In this document: one piece after another, positions 1,811 through 14,667 of the stretch | Layout: every line of letters begins with the position of its first letter | Position numbering within the stretch: position 1 is the first letter of the stretch | From: Thermoplasmata archaeon | Lineage (GTDB): Archaea > Thermoplasmatota > Thermoplasmata > UBA10834 > DTMW01 | NCBI GenBank assembly: GCA_029858465.1 | Contig: JAOUEZ010000001.1 | Location: 1-31,564 of the forward strand | DNA: 31,564 bases | Reading direction: 5' to 3' | Translations under genes and position numbers: made by a program | Notes under the pieces: generated by a model | Told to the model about the DNA's origin: nothing | The model's input: only the letters and a program-made list of their open reading frames with translations | The model's database searches: none

Positions 1811-1981
1811 TTGAGCAAGGGCACGCCCTCGATGGGGAAAAAATCGTCAAAGAAGTCTCACATCATTTGCAGGAGATGCGGTAAGCACGCATTCCATGTC
1901 AGGAGAGGGATATGTGCAAGCTGCGGCTACGGCAAGACCTCCAGAATGAGAAATTACAATTGGGCGAAATCCAAGAAATAG
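1811..1981 (+). CDS. rpl37e: 50S ribosomal protein L37e (not in ORF track)
   Basis: TTG start; [56 protein letters not shown]. It has the CxxC...CxxC zinc ribbon and sits directly after the Sm gene. Confidence 0.95.
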
Positions 1982-2001
1982 TACGGGAGTGTCATGAAAA
2001 A

Positions 2002-3414
2002 ATGTGGCATGTCCCAAAAATAAGAGAAGCATGCGGCGTAATCGGGATGTGCTCACCTGGTTCTGTGTCGGATTATTTATATTTTGGACTCAGAATACTA
2101 CAGCATAGAGGGCAGGAGTCCGCGGGAATATCAGTTTTTGAAGATGGAAAGCACACCATAGTCAAGGGCATGGGACTTGTCCATCAGGTGATGGACAAGG
2201 ATCGTCTCGGACACTTGAAGAGCAACAAGGGGATCGGGCATGTCAGGTACTCAACCTTCGGCGTCTCCGCGCTCCAGAACGTCCAACCATTCGTAGTTCA
2301 GACCACCCATGGAGAGGTCTCTCTTGGGCATAACGGAGAGATAATCAATGCCGAGGCGCTAAGGACTGACCTCAAGAAGAAGGGATGGGCGTTCATGACA
2401 TCCTCCGATTCGGAGATAATCGTCAGATTGCTTGCCAACGAACTGAGCACACATGGTGACCCGGTAAAAGCTATCAAGAATCTGATGGGAATAATTGTGG
2501 GATCATATTCGCTCGTTGTGATGATAGGAGACCGCGTGTTCGGAGTGAGGGACCCCTATGCGATCCGCCCTCTTTGTCTTGGCAGGCTGAACGACGGTTG
2601 GGCCGTGGCCTCGGAGAGCGTCGTCTTCGACAATCTGGATGGCGAATTTGTCAGGGATGTGGAGGGGGGAGAAATTGTCGAGGTCGCTTGTGATGGCCCC
2701 AAATCATGGAAATATCCGTCCCCGAAGGAGAAGGCTCATTGTATGTTCGAATGGGTATATTTCGCGAGACCTGACTCGATAATCGAGGGGGGACTTGTAT
2801 ACGAGGTCAGAAAGAGGATAGGTAGCAAGCTCGCAAAGGAACATCCCGTTGACGCAGATGTTGTCATCCCGATACCCGACTCTGGACGAGCTCATGCTCT
2901 CGGATTCTCGGAGGTGTCCGGAATACCCTACCGGGAAGGACTGATGAAGAACCGATACGTCGAGAGAACATTCATAATGCCGGATCAGAGGGAGAGAGAG
3001 ACCGGCGTCATGCTTAAGTTGAACGCGATCAAAAGCGAGGTAATCGACAAGAAAGTGGTCCTGCTAGATGACAGCATAATCAGAGGGACCACCATGAAGC
3101 AAATAGTGCAGATCCTGAGGAAAGCCGGCGCAAAGGAGATTCATGTCAGGATAGGATCGCCACCTGTAACCGCGCCTTGCTATCTTGGAATTGATATGAA
3201 GACTCGGCATCAATTCGTTGCGCTGAACAGAACTGTTGAAGAGATTGCCAATGTCATAACTGCTGACAGCATAGGATATCTGAGCCTGAATGGACTCATA
3301 GAATGCATTGGTGTAGGTGACAACAATCTCTGCATCGGATGCCTTACCGGAGAATATCCAATACCGATCGAGGGGGAGAGGGTAAGGTTCCAGAAGAAAA
3401 TCGATGCATTCTAA
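2002..3414 (+). CDS. purF: Amidophosphoribosyltransferase
   Basis: Short propeptide then CGVIG nucleophile; QHRGQES, GHVRYST, HNGE, CMFEWVYFARPDS, DDSIIRGTT PRPP site, and a C-terminal CxxC for Fe-S. The start at 2002 is inferred; the ORF track start at 1912 overlaps rpl37e. Confidence 0.95.
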   Translation: MWHVPKIREACGVIGMCSPGSVSDYLYFGLRILQHRGQESAGISVFEDGKHTIVKGMGLVHQVMDKDRLGHLKSNKGIGHVRYSTFGVSALQNVQPFVVQTTHGEVSLGHNGEIINAEALRTDLKKKGWAFMTSSDSEIIVRLLANELSTHGDPVKAIKNLMGIIVGSYSLVVMIGDRVFGVRDPYAIRPLCLGRLNDGWAVASESVVFDNLDGEFVRDVEGGEIVEVACDGPKSWKYPSPKEKAHCMFEWVYFARPDSIIEGGLVYEVRKRIGSKLAKEHPVDADVVIPIPDSGRAHALGFSEVSGIPYREGLMKNRYVERTFIMPDQRERETGVMLKLNAIKSEVIDKKVVLLDDSIIRGTTMKQIVQILRKAGAKEIHVRIGSPPVTAPCYLGIDMKTRHQFVALNRTVEEIANVITADSIGYLSLNGLIECIGVGDNNLCIGCLTGEYPIPIEGERVRFQKKIDAF

Positions 3415-3743: not shown

Positions 3744-4394
3744 TTGACCGAGATATCTAATAATTACGCTGAGGCTAGAAGATACCTCAAGAACAAATAT
3801 CAACACGTCCCCACAGATACAAAAGAAAGAATCCTCTCCGACATTTCAAAATTTCAAGAATCGATAGCATTTGAGGCACCGCATTTGGATAAAATTCTTG
3901 ACGAGCTAGCAAGATTGATTTACCGTAATTTTGAATTTAAAGAGGTCTGCATAGGTCTTATTGATCTGAACGACAAGTCACTGAGATATAGAATTTTTAT
4001 CGGCTTGCATGAAGAGGCTAAAAAGAACTTGAGGATGTGCAAATACACCCAGACTGAGTTTTTAGATGAGAAAAAGCATCCAGGTATATGGATTTCAAAA
4101 TTAACGAAATTCTTCATATCCGGAGAGGCGGAATACGAGCAATGGGAAAGGTCTTGTTTCAACCGACCATTAATCTTGATCGGTAAACGTGACTTAATGG
4201 ATGCTGATATAGAAGGCGACTATATCGATGTGCATATTTTTGGAAAAGATAAGAGATTATTGGGATGGATCGAGCTTTCAAATACGAGGACGGGAAAAAT
4301 CCCTGAGCCAGAAACAATTCGATGGATTGAAATTCTTGCCGGAACGATGTCGCCCATTATCCAATCCCATCTGATGAAAAAATTGAAGAGTTGA
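3744..4394 (+). CDS. Hypothetical protein, possible stand-alone GAF-like domain
   Basis: 216 aa, TTG start. The pattern helix-FxEVCIGL...YIDVHIFG...LLGWIELS...helix resembles GAF folds. No output domain. Confidence 0.6.
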   Translation: MTEISNNYAEARRYLKNKYQHVPTDTKERILSDISKFQESIAFEAPHLDKILDELARLIYRNFEFKEVCIGLIDLNDKSLRYRIFIGLHEEAKKNLRMCKYTQTEFLDEKKHPGIWISKLTKFFISGEAEYEQWERSCFNRPLILIGKRDLMDADIEGDYIDVHIFGKDKRLLGWIELSNTRTGKIPEPETIRWIEILAGTMSPIIQSHLMKKLKS

Positions 4395-6986: not shown

Positions 6987-8942
6987 TCAGATTGCCCCCG
7001 CGCAAGCTGTCATTTCCTTTACGGTCTTATTTGGATTACTAGCTTTCATGAAATAAGAGCCGATCAGGACTGCATCGAAATCTCGAAACATCTCAAGATC
7101 CTTTGGAGATTTGACTCCGCTCTCGGCGATGACAATCTTATCATCGGCGATTTTACTCCTCAATGCAGGCAGTCTCAAGAGATCAACATCGAGATTGCCG
7201 AGATTTCTCGAATTAATCCCGATAAGCCTAACCTTCGAATAAGAATCACAGGACATTATCTTCTGCAAATCATTCTCATCATGAATTTCAAGTACTGGCT
7301 CTATGTTGATATCGAACGATTTTTCAATCATTGATTGCAGAGCGTTTTTGGATAAAGCTTTAGCAATCAGAAGCACGGAATCGGCCCCAATCTCTTTCGC
7401 AATTTTCAATTGCTGTTCTGAGATTACAATATCTTTGAAGAGCATTGGAAGTGAGATTCTATTTCGAAATAATGAGAAGAGATCTGTACTCCCGGAGAAG
7501 AAATTCGATTCGACAAGAACCGAGACACCGGCCAAGCCTGACGAGGAATATACATCCGCCATCATTTCTGGCAGCGGTGCTGGACACAGGTAGGAAGATG
7601 ATGGAGATCGGGGTTTGTATTCTCCAATTACAGCGATTCCCTCGGAAGATTCGATGGAATCAGAGAGAGTGATGTTTGACTTTGGCAGTTTTTGGATAAC
7701 CTTATTCTCACAATTCGGTAGCTGCCTGATGCGATCAAGAGCGAGAACTGTGAGAACATTTGGGTTTCTGATAAGTTCCTGATTGAGATTATCAAGAAGT
7801 CTCTTGCCATCTTCACTCTTTAGAATGTCTTCGATTAGAGCCCTTGCAATCTCAGCGCTTCTTTTGCACAATATCTCAGGCAGGATTTTTCTATTTGTGA
7901 GAGTTACTGGCTCAATTGCGATTTGCACCTTCATCTCAATCTCTCTAACGATCGAAGAGTAATTTTCAAGTTGTTTCATCGCGCGCCTTTCCATTAGAGC
8001 TTTTGAGGCAATCTTGACAGCACTCTCGAGATTTTCTGCTTGCCCTGAGATGTATAACGCGGCACCCGCATTCAATGAAACAATGTCGTGCCGCGGGGAT
8101 TTTTCGCCATTTAAAATGCGCAGAGCTATTCGAGCATTTTCTGCCGGATCTCCGCCTCGGACCGAATCTATATCCGCGGAATTGAATCCGAACATCTCGG
8201 GCTCGATCGAGTATTCGACCACCTCATGATCGCTCAACTCGACTATCTGCGACTTCCCTTGGATGGATATTTCATCCATGCCCTGTCCATTAACTAACAT
8301 AATTCTTTTCGCACCCAGTTTTTCGAGTACGCTTACCATTTTAGATGCGAGAGAGAAATCGTACACGCCTATCAGTTGATTCTTGACGCATGCAGGATTA
8401 GTCATCGGGCCGAGTATATTGAAAAACGTCCTTACGCCAATCTCTCGCCGCGGGACGCTCACATTCTTCATCGAGCTGTGAAATATTGGGGCGAACATGA
8501 ATCCGAAATTGGCCTCCCTCAGGCATCTCTCGACAGCTGCCGAGTCGAAATCATACGGCATTCCCAGAGCATCAAGAAGATCTGCAGACCCGGATCTGCT
8601 CGATACTGATTTGTTACCATGTTTTGCCACCGGGACGCCGCATGCCGCCACGACGAAAGAAGAGACCGTGCTAATGTTGAATGTGTGAAGTCCATCTCCT
8701 CCAGTTCCGCAAAGATCTACCGCGCATTCGTCTGCCCTGATCTTCGTAGATCGCTCACGCATCGCTGTCGCGAAACCGAGCAATTCCTCCTCAGTCTCTC
8801 CCTTCATCCTCATCGCGGTGATGAATGAGGCAATCTGACTGCTGGTCGCCAAGCCGCTCATCATCTCATCCATTACGCTTCTTGCCATTGAGAGACTGAT
8901 GGGGTTTCCTTCAACAACTTGCTGAATTGCCTCGCGAATCAT
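6987..8942 (-). CDS. trpD-trpC: Fused anthranilate phosphoribosyltransferase (N-terminal) and indole-3-glycerol-phosphate synthase (C-terminal)
   Basis: TrpD motifs DLCGTGGDG, FNISTV, KHGNKSVSSRSGSAD, GMDE. TrpC motifs GEYKPRSPS, FKD, LEIH, GINSRNL, AESG, LIGS. One uninterrupted frame; ATG at 8942 overlaps the trpG stop (ATGA). Confidence 0.92.
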   Translation of the reverse strand: MIREAIQQVVEGNPISLSMARSVMDEMMSGLATSSQIASFITAMRMKGETEEELLGFATAMRERSTKIRADECAVDLCGTGGDGLHTFNISTVSSFVVAACGVPVAKHGNKSVSSRSGSADLLDALGMPYDFDSAAVERCLREANFGFMFAPIFHSSMKNVSVPRREIGVRTFFNILGPMTNPACVKNQLIGVYDFSLASKMVSVLEKLGAKRIMLVNGQGMDEISIQGKSQIVELSDHEVVEYSIEPEMFGFNSADIDSVRGGDPAENARIALRILNGEKSPRHDIVSLNAGAALYISGQAENLESAVKIASKALMERRAMKQLENYSSIVREIEMKVQIAIEPVTLTNRKILPEILCKRSAEIARALIEDILKSEDGKRLLDNLNQELIRNPNVLTVLALDRIRQLPNCENKVIQKLPKSNITLSDSIESSEGIAVIGEYKPRSPSSSYLCPAPLPEMMADVYSSSGLAGVSVLVESNFFSGSTDLFSLFRNRISLPMLFKDIVISEQQLKIAKEIGADSVLLIAKALSKNALQSMIEKSFDINIEPVLEIHDENDLQKIMSCDSYSKVRLIGINSRNLGNLDVDLLRLPALRSKIADDKIVIAESGVKSPKDLEMFRDFDAVLIGSYFMKASNPNKTVKEMTACAGAI

Positions 8943-9514
8943 CGCTTGCACATCCTCAGAAAATTGGAAAGGATCGTCTTGCCATGAGATGTCATCACCG
9001 ACTCTGGATGGAACTGAACCCCGTAGATGTCCTCGCCGTCAGCCCTCAGAGCCATGATCTCGGCTTCGTCAGATTCGGCCAAGATTCTCAGTGATGAAGG
9101 GAGAGAGTCCCTATCAACTATCAGAGAATGATAGCGGGTCGCAATGAAATTCTCAGGCACTCCCTCGAACAGAGGATCGTGAGTATGAGTAATCCTGCTG
9201 ACCTTTCCGTGAACAACCTGTCTCGCCCTGATGATCGAGCCGCCCCTGACATGCGCTATCGCCTGATGACCCAGGCAAACTCCCAAAACGGGCCGGCCAA
9301 AGCCATTGTTTCTCAAAATATCAAGGGAGCGGTTTGTGCTCCTCGGATGCCCGGGTCCTGGCGAGATCACGAACCCGTCTGCATCTTTCTGACATGTCTC
9401 TATCTCTGGAGAATCGTTTCTGTGAACGGTCACCTCGGCGCCGAGCTCCTGGAGATATTGGGCGATGTTGTAGACGAAGGAGTCGTAATTGTCGATGAGC
9501 AAGATCTTACTCAT
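8939..9514 (-). CDS. trpG: Anthranilate synthase component II (glutamine amidotransferase)
   Basis: IDNYDSF, SPGPG, GVCLGHQ, RYHSL, QFHPES. Confidence 0.95.
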   Translation of the reverse strand: MSKILLIDNYDSFVYNIAQYLQELGAEVTVHRNDSPEIETCQKDADGFVISPGPGHPRSTNRSLDILRNNGFGRPVLGVCLGHQAIAHVRGGSIIRARQVVHGKVSRITHTHDPLFEGVPENFIATRYHSLIVDRDSLPSSLRILAESDEAEIMALRADGEDIYGVQFHPESVMTSHGKTILSNFLRMCKR

Positions 9515-10929
9515 TTATCCTGTCCCTCCTGGAGCGATCTGATTGCCTGGAGCATCGCGCCCATCTTGTGCTCCGTTTCCTGAAATTCTCGTTGCGGAAC
9601 GGAATCCGCGACTATGCCCGCACCTGCCTGAATGCTTGCTTTGTTTCCGGTCACTGAGATAGATCGAATTGTTATCGCGAAATCCATGTTCCCGGTGAAA
9701 TCGAAATATCCGACCGCGCCCGCGTATGGGCCGCGGGGTGATTTTTCCAATTCGGAAATTATCTGCATCGCTCGTATTTTGGGAGCGCCGGTGACCGTGC
9801 CCGCCGGAAAACAGGATCGCAAAGCGTCAAACCCGTCATAATTGGGGTGAATCTCGCTCTCGACATTGCTCACAATATGTTGAACATGGGAATATTTCTC
9901 CACTGACATGAGCTCTGTGACCTTCACACTGCCGCTCTTAGAGACCCTCCCCATATCATTTCTATGAAGGTCCACGAGCATCAAATGCTCCGCCCGCTCC
10001 TTCTCATCGAGGAGCATGTCGAGCTTCAGCTTCTCGTCCTCTTCGATATCTGGGGATCTCGGCCTTGTTCCAGCCAAAGGCCTCGTTATGAGCTTGTTCC
10101 CCTCGAGCCGGACAAGCATTTCTGGCGAGGAACCCAGGAGATGAACATCGTCGAAGTCGAGATAGAAAAGATATGGTGATGGATTGAGCGCTCGAAGAGC
10201 CTTGTACATTTCTACAGGGTCGCCTTTAATCTTGAAATCTGTCTTCCTGGACAGGACAACCTGGAATATCTCGCCGTCAAGGATGCTCTCCTTGGCGGTC
10301 ATCACCATTTTTTCGAATTCGTCCTGATCAATGTTTGTCCTGCTCTCGCCTATGCTGATGCCCGAGGATTCTATCGGCCGGACTTTTTTCAAAGCTTCTC
10401 TGAGATCTGAAAGCTTGCCGTGCGAGATTAGAAAGGTGCGAGAGTTCAGATGATCGATGCAGACCAAATGCTTAGGAACGATGAATACCGCATCAGGAAG
10501 CTGGCCATTGATCGATTCAGGCTCCTTGATGCGCTCGAAATGTTTCACCATGCCATAGCCGAGATATCCTACTGCCCCTCCTGAGAAGGGAGCTATCTCG
10601 GATGCCCCGCATTTTATTGATTTGAAATACTCCTGCAGAACTGCGTATGGATTCCCCGTTTTGACAACCTCATCATCAATCTCCACCAATTGATCTCTGG
10701 CTCTGAATTTGGAGATTGGCGCGACACCGATGAATGAATATCTCGCCGTCTTTCTCGTTCCTTCAACTGATTCAAGGAGGAATGATTCTCCAGGAAATTC
10801 CTCTCGAAGGCATGAAAAAATCGATACTGGGTCGTGTTTCATCTCGCTTTCAATTGATACGCTCATCATTAGTGGCTGTTGAGCGGCTTGTTCCGCGCCC
10901 GTTTCGGCGCCAAAGTAAATCCCTGCCAT
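9511..10929 (-). CDS. trpE: Anthranilate synthase component I
   Basis: LLES...RYSFIG, GEIFQVVLS, NPSPY, SSPE, AGTRPR, EHLMLVDL, FPAGTVTGAPK, QAGAGIVADS. The start may instead be the ATG at 10869 or 10866. Confidence 0.95.
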   Translation of the reverse strand: MAGIYFGAETGAEQAAQQPLMMSVSIESEMKHDPVSIFSCLREEFPGESFLLESVEGTRKTARYSFIGVAPISKFRARDQLVEIDDEVVKTGNPYAVLQEYFKSIKCGASEIAPFSGGAVGYLGYGMVKHFERIKEPESINGQLPDAVFIVPKHLVCIDHLNSRTFLISHGKLSDLREALKKVRPIESSGISIGESRTNIDQDEFEKMVMTAKESILDGEIFQVVLSRKTDFKIKGDPVEMYKALRALNPSPYLFYLDFDDVHLLGSSPEMLVRLEGNKLITRPLAGTRPRSPDIEEDEKLKLDMLLDEKERAEHLMLVDLHRNDMGRVSKSGSVKVTELMSVEKYSHVQHIVSNVESEIHPNYDGFDALRSCFPAGTVTGAPKIRAMQIISELEKSPRGPYAGAVGYFDFTGNMDFAITIRSISVTGNKASIQAGAGIVADSVPQREFQETEHKMGAMLQAIRSLQEGQDK

Positions 10930-10955
10930 TGTCCACGAGAATAGTTGATGCTTGA

Positions 10956-10981
10956 TGTACTATTTATATCTTTATTGTACA
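10956..10981 (-). promoter_or_regulatory. trp operon promoter: TATA box flanked by TGTAC(A/T) boxes
   Basis: Minus-strand GATATAAATA at 10970-10961; TGTACA at 10976-10981 and TGTACT at 10956-10961 on the plus strand. Confidence 0.5.
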
Positions 10982-11121
10982 AATATGTTCTAAATTGACC
11001 AAAATATTGTTGAGAAAGGCGGTCGCGACTCATCATTGGAGATGATATCAGAAACACAAAGAACAGTTTAACAATATAGGTATAGGAATAATATCGGCAT
11101 CTTTCGCTCGCTCAAAGGGAC

Positions 11122-14100
11122 ATGTCGATAATGTTGGTCGATCAAATGGGCAATTACATTATCTATCTTGGAGAAAGTGGCTCCGATCTGAAGAAATTCG
11201 GGGGGAAAGCCGCCAATCTAACAATACTCGCTTCCTCGGGATTCGCTGTTCCCCCAGGAATAGTTGTAAATGTGAGTGCCTATGAAAAATTCATTGAGGA
11301 CAATAGCCTCGGAGAAGAGATAGGAAAATGCCTCGAAAATTCTAATTTGACAAATGATTCACACCTTGAGAATTGCTCCAAAACAATACAGAACATGATC
11401 CTCTCCGGAAAATTCGACCCTCAGATCTCCAACGAACTGAGGGATGCAATTCGAAGAATCGGCGAGGACAACACATGGGCGGTGAGATCATCCGCATTCG
11501 CCGAGGACATGCCGGGAGCGTCATTTGCTGGCCAGCAGGACTCTTACCTCGGTGTGGCGACCGATGATATCGAGGAATACATAAAGAAGTGCTGGGCATC
11601 CTACTGGAATATAAGGGCGATCACCTATCGCCTGGATTCTGACATCCCTCATCTCGAAGGGGGAATGGCTGTATTAATCCAGAAGATGGTCGATGCGATA
11701 TCCTCAGGCGTCGTCTTCACCATCGATCCCGTCAAGAGAAACAAGGATCGGATGATCATTGAATCGAGCTGGGGGCTTGGAGAGGCAATAGTATCGGGCA
11801 AGGTTGTTCCCGACAGGTTCACAATCGACAAGACCACCTCGGAAATCGTTCTCAGAGAGATAAGCAAGAAGACAAAGGGCGTATTCCTTTCGAAAATTGG
11901 GAGTACCGAATCTGAGATTGAGACGGCCCGTCGGAATGCCCCATCTATAAACGACCAAAATATCCGAAATCTTGCCTCATTGGGAGCGATAATAGAGGAA
12001 GAATTCGGAGCACCTCAGGACATAGAATGGGCGATCGACAAGGAGAGGATTTGGATCCTGCAGTCGAGGCCCGTGACTACGGTCAAGGCGGGGGATGAGA
12101 CTCTTTGGACAAGGGGATACGGTGATGATTATTGGTCGGAGGTAGCCTCTCCGCTATCATTCTCATTGCTCGGTCATTATCTTACTGAGTACGTTAATCG
12201 TGAAGGGTCAAAGGTGATGGGGTACAAAAATCTCACCGACAAGGATCTTCTGATTGTGCACAAGGCGCACGTCTATTTCAACAGCTCAGTCCTGGAAGAG
12301 GTATTCACATACAATCCGAGATTCTCGAGAACAAAGGAGCTTCTGAGCTATTTCCCCATGAGGGATCAGGAGCGAATCGCAAGCGCGAAGACAAGGATTC
12401 TTTCAAGATTAATGGCTGAATTCAGAATTGCACTATTCGATCCAGATGGAATAATGCTGAGAACGGACAAGGCATACAAAGAATGGTCTCAGAAATATCT
12501 TGAGGAGATGAAGACTTTTGATTCTCTCAATCTCACGAAGCTGACGGATGAGCAACTGCACAGTGAATTCCTCAAAATGGAAAAGATGTACATCAAGCAC
12601 TACAGACTGATAAGATACGGGATGGTCACTCACAGCATCGGCACCAACCTCATTATCAAGAGGTGGCTGACAGACTGGTTGAACGATCGATCTGGGGCAA
12701 TATACTCAAAGCTCATCTCGGGCTTGCGCGGGAACAAAACTATAGAGACTAATATCGCAATCTCAAAACTTGCGAATGCGGCTCGAGACAACCTTCTGGT
12801 TGTCTCAAAAATTGATAAAACATCATCGAATGATTTCCTGCAGTTGATCAGATCGGATCCGGATTATTATGATTTCAACAAGCAGCTCGAAGAATTTCTG
12901 AGAGAGTATGGCCACAGGTCTCACACCAGAGAGACTTTCTATCCAAGATGGGTGGACGACCCAACTTTGGTCATAGATATGGTTAGGACGCTGATGGCCT
13001 CGGGGAAAATCGATCTTGAGGAACTCGAGAGGAGGAGGATTCAGGAGAGGATTGAAACCGAAAAAGAGATTTTCCAGAGACTTTCGAAGATGAAATATGG
13101 TTTCTTCCGGAAGACCATCTTTAAAATGGTTCTGAATCTGGCTCAGACATATCTGATGTTCCGGGAGAACCAACGATTCTTCTTCGACCATCAGGTCTAC
13201 AGATGGAGACGACTTTTCATGGAATATGGAAGAAGATTTGCCGAAAGAAAGTTGATTGAGGCTCAGGATTGCATTTTTTTCCTGTCGAAAGAGGAAATCT
13301 TCAAAAGCGCACGAACTGGAAAGCCTTTGGATAGACAACTTTTAAAAGATAGAAGGAAGGAATTCGAGGCGTACAAGGGGGTCTTGCCGCCAAAATTCTT
13401 GCAGGGCGGAGTGGAATTCGATGATCCCATCATCGATTCCGAGGATGCAATAAAGATTACAGGGACACCCTCTAGCCCGGGAATCGTCACCAGCAGAATC
13501 AGAGTGATTGATTCAATCGAGCATCTTCCGGATATAAGGGATAAAGAGATACTCGTGACATCCAACACCGATCCTGGCTGGACCGCGATATTTTCCAAAC
13601 TCAGCGGCCTGATAACAGAAACAGGAGGGATCCTATCTCATGGCGCAGTCGTATCAAGAGAATACGGGATACCTGCAGTCACCGCTGTGAAGAATGCGAC
13701 GAATATATTGAAAACAGGCCAGGAGGTCACTCTTGATGGAAATGACGGCGTAGTGCTAATCAAGGCGGAAATGAAAGACACAGATATTTTCCACGAGTTC
13801 AAGAACCATCCGAATTGGAACGAGAGCTACTATTTCAATTTCTATGACCGGACATCTGATATTTACGGATTTATGAGGATTGGACTTAATCCGAAGATAG
13901 AGATGAAAAACGTCTTCTGCTTCTTCATAATGCCTGATGGAAAAATGATAGGGATAAAGGAAAGCACCCCGGATAGAGACAAAACATTGTCTATTAAAGG
14001 CTTGAATTTTGAAAAGCTGGTTCCGGAAAAGAAATGGAAGTTGAGATGCTCGAGCACAATGACCGGTGCTTTCACAGAAAAAGTCGAATTTGATCTCGAT

Positions 14101-14667
14101 TTTGAATCATTAAATGATATTTTTGATTATAGAGAGGCAGTGACATCCGCAGGAAGGATGATGTCGAAAGATATCGCATCAGAACATCTTGAGCAATTTG
14201 GCAAGATACAAGGAAGATTGAAAATCGGAGAGAAAGTCTATTCGATAGATGCATTAGGAGAGAGGGATCACTCATGGGGAATAAGGGATTGGATCGCCCC
14301 AAAACTCTGGTTCTGGCTGAATGCTCATTTTTCCGAGGTACTATCAGTGAACATTACGAAACTTGTCACGGACATCGGAGAGGTGTATGCGGGGTTCATA
14401 TTCGAGGACGGAAAGAACATACCGATCTTAAACGCAGAGATATCGCCCAGATACGATTCTAAAGGAAGACCGCTTGATTTTAAAATGAAATTGTACGATA
14501 AGATTGGTAACACTCACGAGATAGACGCGATCATAATAAGAGACGCTATCGTCACTTTTGAAGTGCAGGATGGCAGGATGGGTTCAGTCATGCATGAGAC
14601 ACTGGCAAAATATAAATTCAGGGATCGCACCGGGTTTGGCATCGCGGAGTTTCTGACGAGATTATAA
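11122..14667 (+). CDS. PEP/pyruvate-binding ATP-grasp plus phospho-His swivel dikinase (RPH-like architecture) with an extra C-terminal ~295-aa domain
   Basis: FGGKAANL, AVRSSA.AED...SFAGQ, QDIEW, QSRPVT. The His domain has TETGGILSHGAVVSREYGIP (H840, codon 13639). The C-terminal region has WNESYYFNFYD and GERDHSWGIRDW. No PEP-binding TIM barrel. Confidence 0.85.
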   Translation: MSIMLVDQMGNYIIYLGESGSDLKKFGGKAANLTILASSGFAVPPGIVVNVSAYEKFIEDNSLGEEIGKCLENSNLTNDSHLENCSKTIQNMILSGKFDPQISNELRDAIRRIGEDNTWAVRSSAFAEDMPGASFAGQQDSYLGVATDDIEEYIKKCWASYWNIRAITYRLDSDIPHLEGGMAVLIQKMVDAISSGVVFTIDPVKRNKDRMIIESSWGLGEAIVSGKVVPDRFTIDKTTSEIVLREISKKTKGVFLSKIGSTESEIETARRNAPSINDQNIRNLASLGAIIEEEFGAPQDIEWAIDKERIWILQSRPVTTVKAGDETLWTRGYGDDYWSEVASPLSFSLLGHYLTEYVNREGSKVMGYKNLTDKDLLIVHKAHVYFNSSVLEEVFTYNPRFSRTKELLSYFPMRDQERIASAKTRILSRLMAEFRIALFDPDGIMLRTDKAYKEWSQKYLEEMKTFDSLNLTKLTDEQLHSEFLKMEKMYIKHYRLIRYGMVTHSIGTNLIIKRWLTDWLNDRSGAIYSKLISGLRGNKTIETNIAISKLANAARDNLLVVSKIDKTSSNDFLQLIRSDPDYYDFNKQLEEFLREYGHRSHTRETFYPRWVDDPTLVIDMVRTLMASGKIDLEELERRRIQERIETEKEIFQRLSKMKYGFFRKTIFKMVLNLAQTYLMFRENQRFFFDHQVYRWRRLFMEYGRRFAERKLIEAQDCIFFLSKEEIFKSARTGKPLDRQLLKDRRKEFEAYKGVLPPKFLQGGVEFDDPIIDSEDAIKITGTPSSPGIVTSRIRVIDSIEHLPDIRDKEILVTSNTDPGWTAIFSKLSGLITETGGILSHGAVVSREYGIPAVTAVKNATNILKTGQEVTLDGNDGVVLIKAEMKDTDIFHEFKNHPNWNESYYFNFYDRTSDIYGFMRIGLNPKIEMKNVFCFFIMPDGKMIGIKESTPDRDKTLSIKGLNFEKLVPEKKWKLRCSSTMTGAFTEKVEFDLDFESLNDIFDYREAVTSAGRMMSKDIASEHLEQFGKIQGRLKIGEKVYSIDALGERDHSWGIRDWIAPKLWFWLNAHFSEVLSVNITKLVTDIGEVYAGFIFEDGKNIPILNAEISPRYDSKGRPLDFKMKLYDKIGNTHEIDAIIIRDAIVTFEVQDGRMGSVMHETLAKYKFRDRTGFGIAEFLTRL

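Follow-up and report, generated by a model that had tools for sequence, protein, structure and literature searches.

We analysed a window of 31,564 nucleotides of archaeal DNA (contig JAOUEZ010000001.1, from a Thermoplasmata archaeon) and focused on one of its genes, a single uninterrupted plus-strand frame at 11122-14667 that encodes 1181 amino acids and joins a small-molecule dikinase to a C-terminal double barrel. Sequence, a structure model and analogy with a characterised enzyme pair suggest that this protein is probably a dehydratase in one polypeptide, in which the conversion of ATP to AMP drives dehydration of a hydrophobic, possibly isoprenoid, alcohol. The proposal builds on what we observe of its domains, its conserved catalytic residues, its fold, and the recurrent fusion or adjacency of its two halves in other genomes.

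By sequence, the kinase half is a small-molecule dikinase of the rifampin phosphotransferase (RPH)/PigC type. Pfam places PPDK_N (PF01326) at residues 26-323 (E 8e-91) and the PEP-utilizers domain (PF00391) at residues 806-876 (E 2e-24), both above their gathering scores, and finds no phosphoenolpyruvate (PEP)/pyruvate TIM barrel (PEP-utilizers_C, PF02896) in the protein. The closest solved structure for this half is Listeria RPH (E 2e-102). H840 aligns with the catalytic His825 of that enzyme (5fbs) and is invariant across 16 full-length homologues. Residues 514-798 of the intervening substrate domain align to residues 499-784 of 5fbs (E 2e-17), and RedH spans the whole domain (E 2e-32). Within this domain R681, E682 and R685, also invariant in the 16 homologues, align with RPH Arg666, Glu667 and Lys670, which position the phosphohistidine for the second phosphotransfer to the substrate hydroxyl (PMC4844700). 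The central domain is unusually strongly conserved among the same homologues, which argues for one specific substrate. The best NCBIfam matches are uncharacterised PRK06241 'PEP synthase' subfamilies, RPH, RedH and PigC, and all fall far under the curated cut-offs: RPH (NF041857, 430.8 vs 999; NF000283, 297.6 vs 1700), PEP synthase (TIGR01418, 381.8 vs 739.75; NF005057, 394 vs 598), PigC (404.9 vs 1300) and RedH (417.8 vs 1350). We therefore rejected rifampin phosphotransferase, prodiginine ligase and PEP synthase as identities, on these scores and on the missing PEP/pyruvate barrel.

The tail consists of DUF7065 (E 9e-17, score 62.2 vs a gathering score of 27) followed by DUF7064 (E 2e-12, 48.1 vs 24.7). 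Its only relatives in the PDB by sequence are 9fzn, 9g2i and 9g4c, deposited as '25-phosphosteroid lyase' (25-PSL; E 4e-8). In Sterolibacterium denitrificans the kinase 25-HSK phosphorylates the tertiary 25-OH of a steroid, and subsequent elimination of the phosphate yields the delta-24 alkene (PMC7411048, PMC8449060, PMC11061730). An AlphaFold model of the tail, built from 72 family sequences, has a predicted local distance difference test score (pLDDT) of 96.5 and a predicted template-modelling score (pTM) of 0.92. Searched with Foldseek, the model retrieves 25-PSL chains as its top five matches (E 5e-16 to 9e-15, template-modelling score (TM) 0.73-0.75), with a TM of 0.75 and E of 5e-16 to 9g4c, which is complexed with phosphate and the alkene product desmost-1,4-diene-3-one; kievitone hydratase (E 1e-9, TM 0.64), fungal decalin Diels-Alderases and AttH rank after it. 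Entry 9g4c differs from 9fzn by an Asp-to-Asn change within GSRDRSWGVR. The window counterpart, GERDHSWGIRD, retains the Asp as D1049, and the position is Asp in 67 of the 72 family sequences; the deposited complex of the Asp-to-Asn variant with product suggests a catalytic role for D1049. Ten residues (H891, E901, S902, H1022, E1024, Q1025, R1048, D1049, W1052 and R1055) are each kept in at least 90% of the 72 sequences. The tail also matches the Rv3169 family (NF053593), under the subfamily cut-off (64.3 vs 150). DUF7065 was absent from all 14 named control genomes, and our literature search returned no paper naming DUF7065 or DUF7064 and none describing the 25-PSL structure. The window tail (13771-14667) forms a long branch of 0.81 changes per site with its catalytic motifs intact, and does not group with that of the same-genus genome G001 (locus L002), where identity across the full protein is only 56%.

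These results agree well with the first-pass annotation of this gene, which had been made from the letters of the sequence. The reading frame and the two motifs that it quoted, WNESYYFNFYD (residues 899-909) and RDHSWGIRDW (1048-1057), are present as described, and the ATP-grasp domain, said to end at about 12085, ends near nt 12090. The domain order that it proposed (ATP-grasp, substrate domain, His), that of RPH/PigC-type dikinases and unlike that of PpsA/PPDK, is recovered by Pfam and by the RPH and RedH alignments. Pfam and Foldseek likewise bear out an AttH/CrtC-like double-barrel tail (DUF7064/7065), the latter placing it with 25-PSL/AttH-type barrels and not with an unrelated fold. The failed equivalog cut-offs speak against a plain rifampin phosphotransferase or PEP synthase, either of which would have undone that annotation.

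The two halves occur both joined and apart in the order to which the host belongs. The fusion is uninterrupted in six of 41 genomes from this order; five others have a split pair and six only the lyase. The fusion is not an assembly artefact, as it recurs in independent assemblies. In four of the five split genomes, all of one genus, a single in-frame TGA is placed precisely at the junction (...LQEA*HMHTD...), and an ATG follows two codons further on; the fifth has a stop plus a frame change there. Across split homologues the dikinase ends with GGAGG, a stop and a lyase start within 0-10 nt, and this arrangement of GGAGG with overlapping stop and start indicates translational coupling. The window reads AAGGCGGAA-ATG (M885) at the same point and has no stop codon, a sequence that fits an origin of the fusion by stop-codon loss. 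In an AlphaFold model of the full-length protein (16 sequences; mean pLDDT 72, pTM 0.45) residues 882-900 form a disordered linker. The fused state is scattered on the lyase tree, with a parsimony count of four changes and a minimum of two if only the well-supported branches are considered. An in-frame TGA at the junction, with an ATG one or two codons on, was seen at loci L004, L006, L014 and L015 (genomes G022, G020, G036 and G009), and also at L025 (Candidatus Methanomethylicus) and L027. Throughout the sister family a STAND-type protein of 913-957 aa (HTH_Crp_2 + AAA_16/NB-ARC + TPR) is encoded convergent to the pair or the lone lyase (for example L007 9688-12444 on the minus strand, L012 2271-5009 on the plus strand and L018 12413-15160 on the minus strand); it is absent from the window and may be a regulator of the pair or of the lone lyase.

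We looked for the module more widely with a motif scan derived from a 24-sequence tail alignment, using one genome per species. The scan returned 586 relatives, and we scored the arrangement of kinase and lyase at the best 80 loci by domain-wise tblastn. A dikinase is encoded as a separate ORF directly upstream of the lyase at 32 of these loci, with GGAGG and overlapping stop and start, downstream at five, partly in reach at three, and fused at one (Acidobacteriota). It is thus the adjacent gene at 37 of the 80 loci, in about ten phyla. A kinase of the APH type adjoins the lyase at eight. As a matter of genomic association, one kinase or the other is adjacent to or fused with the lyase at 46 of the best 80. 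Within these best 80 of 586, the dikinase-linked loci are those most similar to the window tail. They come from archaea (Methanomassiliicoccales, Methanomethylicia, Methanofastidiosa, Thermococci, Theionarchaea, a Halobacteria metagenome-assembled genome (MAG) and Undinarchaeales) and from bacteria (Actinomycetota, including Acidimicrobium, Chloroflexota, Deltaproteobacteria, Myxococcota and Proteobacteria). Locus L023 (5622-6005, a Candidatus Methanomethyliaceae MAG) has a 128-residue ATP-grasp remnant directly upstream of an intact lyase, which looks like an internal deletion of the dikinase. At L040 (435-4907, an Actinomycetota MAG) the substrate and His-swivel modules are tandemly duplicated in a 1502-aa dikinase ORF ahead of the lyase gene.

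In a library of 1.84 billion proteins the tail family has 915 members, counted as representative clusters. Most stand alone at 290-370 aa, and the 1180-aa fusion makes up only one 50%-identity cluster of the 915. Other long members combine APH, SCP2 and DUF7065/64 (P0161) or PPDK_N and DUF7065/64. P0161 has the same active-site residues as the window tail and lies beside genes for an acyl-CoA dehydrogenase and an enoyl-CoA hydratase. We did not count P0112 (PEP-utilizers + lyase, 445 aa) as a separate architecture; its gene begins right where a contig of 1.4 kb ends, and it is probably a fragment of a longer fusion. An APH protein, Rv3168, shares one operon with Rv3169 (PMC5340868). Neighbour clustering at 46 loci (41 with dikinase hits plus five others) gave no cluster beyond the pair itself in more than six closely related genomes. 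A Pfam tally of 107 neighbours at 21 distant loci gave scattered flavoproteins, two SCP2 proteins, two SRPBCC proteins and one geranylgeranyl-reductase-like gene, the last directly 3' of the lyase at a Chloroflexota locus; the tally points to lipids and is suggestive, not decisive. The cultured bacteria Thauera terpenica 58Eu (L098) and Solimonas aquatica (L100), one of them a monoterpene degrader, also have stand-alone family members, again lacking a kinase gene within 6 kb; these may offer experimental entry points.

We propose a reaction in two steps, both of which, together with their order and the class of substrate, we infer by analogy. In the first, modelled on RPH, the ATP-grasp domain would pyrophosphorylate H840, the gamma-phosphate would be hydrolysed, and the swivel domain would carry the beta-phosphate to the helical substrate domain, where R681, E682 and R685 would help move it onto the hydroxyl of a bound small molecule (ATP + R-OH + H2O -> AMP + Pi + R-O-P). 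In the second, modelled on 25-PSL, the phosphoester would pass to the C-terminal double barrel, where the C-O bond would be cleaved with phosphate as the leaving group and D1049 would most likely take the proton, leaving a C=C bond; cyclisation or isomerisation through the same carbocation is a minor variant. The two steps together would convert ATP to AMP + 2 Pi. Because two phosphoanhydride bonds would be spent, phosphorylation even of a poor (e.g. tertiary) alcohol could become irreversible. By comparison, 25-HSK is a 40-kDa APH-type kinase whose step is fully reversible, since the tertiary phosphoester has an ATP-like transfer potential (PMC8449060). The two halves have fused and split repeatedly, are tightly coupled, and have a parallel in the fusions with APH, which is the classic signature of two proteins acting in sequence. 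This signature, combined with one characterised relative, makes hydroxyl phosphorylation followed by C-O cleavage the most likely function. That the alcohol would be hydrophobic, perhaps isoprenoid, is suggested by the isoprenoid and polyene substrates of the fold relatives, the SCP2 and SRPBCC neighbours, and the geranylgeranyl-reductase-like gene.

The first-pass annotation had already pictured an enzyme that activates its substrate and then hydrates or dehydrates it. This idea is largely supported, as it matches 25-PSL, which eliminates phosphate from a kinase-made phosphoester (PMC7411048, PMC8449060). Its label 'orphan' has to be given up: the gene represents, as a fusion, a module of two genes that is widespread, the fusion is shared by six of the 41 genomes of the order and so is not peculiar to this assembly, and the split gene pairs that it suggested looking for exist in the order and beyond. 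It also knew of no described enzyme with this architecture; a two-enzyme analogue, 25-HSK + 25-PSL, has been described, with an unrelated APH-type kinase.

Several observations weigh against sequential phosphorylation and elimination. Identity between the tail and 25-PSL is only 18-20%, and the near-invariant H1022 and E1024 are Arg and Ala in 25-PSL, so the chemistry of the tail could differ. The full-length model, at its low pTM, is too weak to show passage of a product between the sites. Six genomes of the order (L008-L013; G015, G013, G019, G033, G011 and G014) keep the lyase at the same locus with the dikinase lost; their lyase genes adjoin MscS, CBS and STAND genes and have no kinase neighbour, and it is their position at the syntenic locus MscS-CBS-[dikinase]-lyase-STAND regulator that indicates loss, which happened at least three times on the lyase tree. 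About 31 of the best 80 loci also have no kinase within 6 kb. Together with the lyase-only genomes, these loci imply that the lyase does not always depend on a kinase, at least in cis. Finally, the neighbours included no conserved third gene, for instance one for a hydroxylase, from which the substrate could be named. The lyase-only copy in G014 contains an internal TAG.

We considered three other explanations. The order of the steps could be reversed, with the tail, as a hydratase like CrtC or kievitone hydratase, first adding water to an alkene and the dikinase afterwards phosphorylating the alcohol so formed; this would pull an unfavourable hydration and make the phosphoester the end product. 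The fold family does include hydratases that make tertiary alcohols, and kievitone hydratase and AttH are the next-best folds after 25-PSL. We nevertheless regard this order as unlikely, since the closest relative by sequence and by fold is a phosphate-eliminating lyase, the conserved Arg/His-rich motif (R1048, H1050, R1055, H891, H1022) fits an anion site, and the family recurs beside two unrelated types of kinase, as expected if a phosphoester is the substrate. Equally, the tail could be a lipocalin-like barrel without catalytic function that binds or delivers a hydrophobic substrate or sequesters the product, leaving a plain small-molecule phosphotransferase such as an RPH-like inactivator of a toxin. 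In favour of this, lipids are bound by AttH-like barrels and by SCP2 domains, RPH homologues act in resistance, and the module is patchy across two domains of life with no pathway partners, but polar residues kept in at least 90% of 72 sequences are typical of an active site and the Asp altered in 9g4c is retained, and we think a purely binding tail improbable.

Hardly any weight remains for the third explanation, an unrelated passenger domain attached to what is otherwise a standard PEP synthase or rifampin phosphotransferase, even though source databases name the homologues 'pyruvate, water dikinase' or 'PEP/pyruvate-binding domain-containing protein'. In favour of it, the host genome has no other PpsA-like match, but that genome is only 86% complete. 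Against it stand the separate PpsA-like gene of all 40 relatives (only 34-39% identical to the ATP-grasp domain of the window protein), the absent TIM barrel and the scores given above, and the fact that archaeal RNA polymerase is not a rifampin target.

Extending the proposed phosphorylation and elimination beyond this protein, we tentatively suggest, at a little under an even chance, that the dikinase-lyase pair is a self-contained, horizontally spread and so far undescribed enzyme class: an ATP-to-AMP-driven dehydratase of anaerobes in many phyla that strips unreactive hydroxyls from hydrophobic molecules. Candidate roles for such a class are (i) to repair or remodel isoprenoid lipids that carry added water or hydroxyl groups, and (ii) irreversible inactivation of a hydroxylated toxin; patchy spread across domains without pathway partners fits a repair or a detoxification role equally. 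Dehydration by a kinase plus a phospholyase is already known, and what is new here is its dikinase-driven, fused form. If the proposal is true, it would supply a testable function for the DUF7065/DUF7064 family and for those RPH homologues, labelled 'PEP synthase-like', that do not act on rifampin. Oxygen-free dehydration of difficult alcohols by kinase and phospholyase would then not be confined to anaerobic steroid degraders but would be a general strategy, one that reaches archaea and was put together at least twice from kinases unrelated to each other. Spending two phosphoanhydride bonds would address the thermodynamic problem of 25-HSK (PMC8449060). With both halves naturally joined, expression and structural studies have one convenient protein to aim at, which might also be of use for dehydrating alcohols in biocatalysis.

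Feature coordinates are collected in the table below. Translation may start at 11122 or at 11131, where a second candidate start, an ATG, lies; in the database (P0002) the protein is 1178 aa long. The host assembly is an archaeal MAG of 1.45 Mb, which related records place in the order Methanomassiliicoccales; no mcrA match was found in it at its 86% completeness, and no steroid-degradation genes were seen within the window. The gene is flanked by a divergent trp operon (trpE, trpG, a trpD-trpC fusion, trpF, trpB, trpA) and a convergent Na+/H+ exchanger gene. The divergent trp layout recurs in related contigs; we dropped it as a functional clue, since its conservation is limited to the family to which the window belongs and the sister family lacks it. 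The trpD-trpC gene (6987-8951, minus strand, 654 aa) contains Glycos_trans_3N, Glycos_transf_3 and IGPS domains, and related contigs hold the same fusion at 653 aa. Between a purF-like gene (1912-3414) and trpA lies an ORF of 216 aa (3744-4394, plus strand), for which Pfam gave no match at E <= 0.001.

Table. Features of the fused gene and its divergent neighbour, in window coordinates.
Feature	Position	Strand	Evidence
Fused dikinase-lyase, whole ORF, 1181 aa	11122..14667	+	ORF, translation, Pfam, database copy
ATP-grasp nucleotide-binding domain (PPDK_N), residues 26-323, with GGKAANL and VRSSAFAED motifs	11197..12090	+	Pfam E 8e-91; alignment to PEP synthase 9dae
Helical substrate-binding domain, Rph/PigC/RedH type, residues ~325-770	12094..13431	+	5fbs E 2e-17; RedH 2e-32; Pfam PF27448 Rph_4th on homologues
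R681-E682-N-Q-R685, equivalents of RPH Arg666/Glu667/Lys670	13162..13176	+	Alignment to 5fbs
Phospho-histidine swivel domain (PEP-utilizers), residues 806-876; H840 codon 13639-13641	13537..13749	+	Pfam; alignment to 5fbs
Junction/linker, residues 877-890; AAGGCGGAA-ATG (M885, codon 13774-13776)	13750..13791	+	Comparison with split homologues; low pLDDT at 882-900
DUF7065 barrel, residues 892-1055, including W899-D909 (nt 13816-13848)	13795..14286	+	Pfam, structure model
RDHSWGIRDW motif, residues 1048-1057; D1049 matches the Asp changed to Asn in 25-PSL variant 9g4c	14263..14292	+	Alignment to 25-PSL
DUF7064 barrel, residues 1062-1178	14305..14655	+	Pfam, structure model
Intergenic region common to the ORF and divergent trpE; presumed promoter region	10930..11121	.	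Gene map
trpE, divergent neighbour	9511-10929	-	

The closest known system is the pair 25-HSK + 25-PSL (9fzn, 9g2i, 9g4c), with which the window protein would share a two-step, ATP-dependent dehydration through a phosphoester to an alkene. Its tail resembles 25-PSL in having DUF7065 and DUF7064, in its fold (TM 0.75) and in the Asp that is altered in 9g4c. The kinases differ: 25-HSK is of the APH type, converts ATP to ADP reversibly and is encoded away from its lyase, whereas the window kinase is by homology an RPH-type dikinase (ATP to AMP + Pi) and is covalently fused. The hosts differ too, as the window comes from an archaeon that is anaerobic and shows no sign of a steroid pathway, unlike Sterolibacterium denitrificans.

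Listeria RPH (5hv1/5fbs), which phosphorylates the hydroxyl of a hydrophobic small molecule (PMC4844700), has the same three-domain order, with His825 corresponding to H840 and its Arg/Glu/Lys site to R681/E682/R685. The window protein departs from RPH in its score for the RPH equivalog (431, with the cut-off at 999) and in its substrate domain, where similarity is only weak (E 2e-17) and lies mainly in the second half. RPH itself lacks a lyase domain, and its reaction ends with the phosphorylated product. The prodigiosin/undecylprodigiosin ligases PigC, RedH and HapC (PMC13534948) belong to the same dikinase family; in them an oxygen is proposed to be phosphorylated and the phosphate then lost within one catalytic cycle, which makes phosphate the leaving group. 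There, a second substrate displaces the phosphate inside the substrate domain and a separate lyase domain is absent, and the window protein stays well below the PigC and RedH cut-offs (405 vs 1300 and 418 vs 1350). The two-barrel fold of the tail is shared with AttH, kievitone hydratase and CrtC-type enzymes and with fungal decalin Diels-Alderases (2ich, 7a0t, 6kaw, 7e5t; TM 0.58-0.67, E 1e-9 to 5e-7), all of which handle hydrophobic isoprenoid or polyene substrates. Their identity to the tail is 6-15%, and, unlike the role we propose for the tail, the AttH-type enzymes have neither a phosphoester substrate nor a kinase partner.

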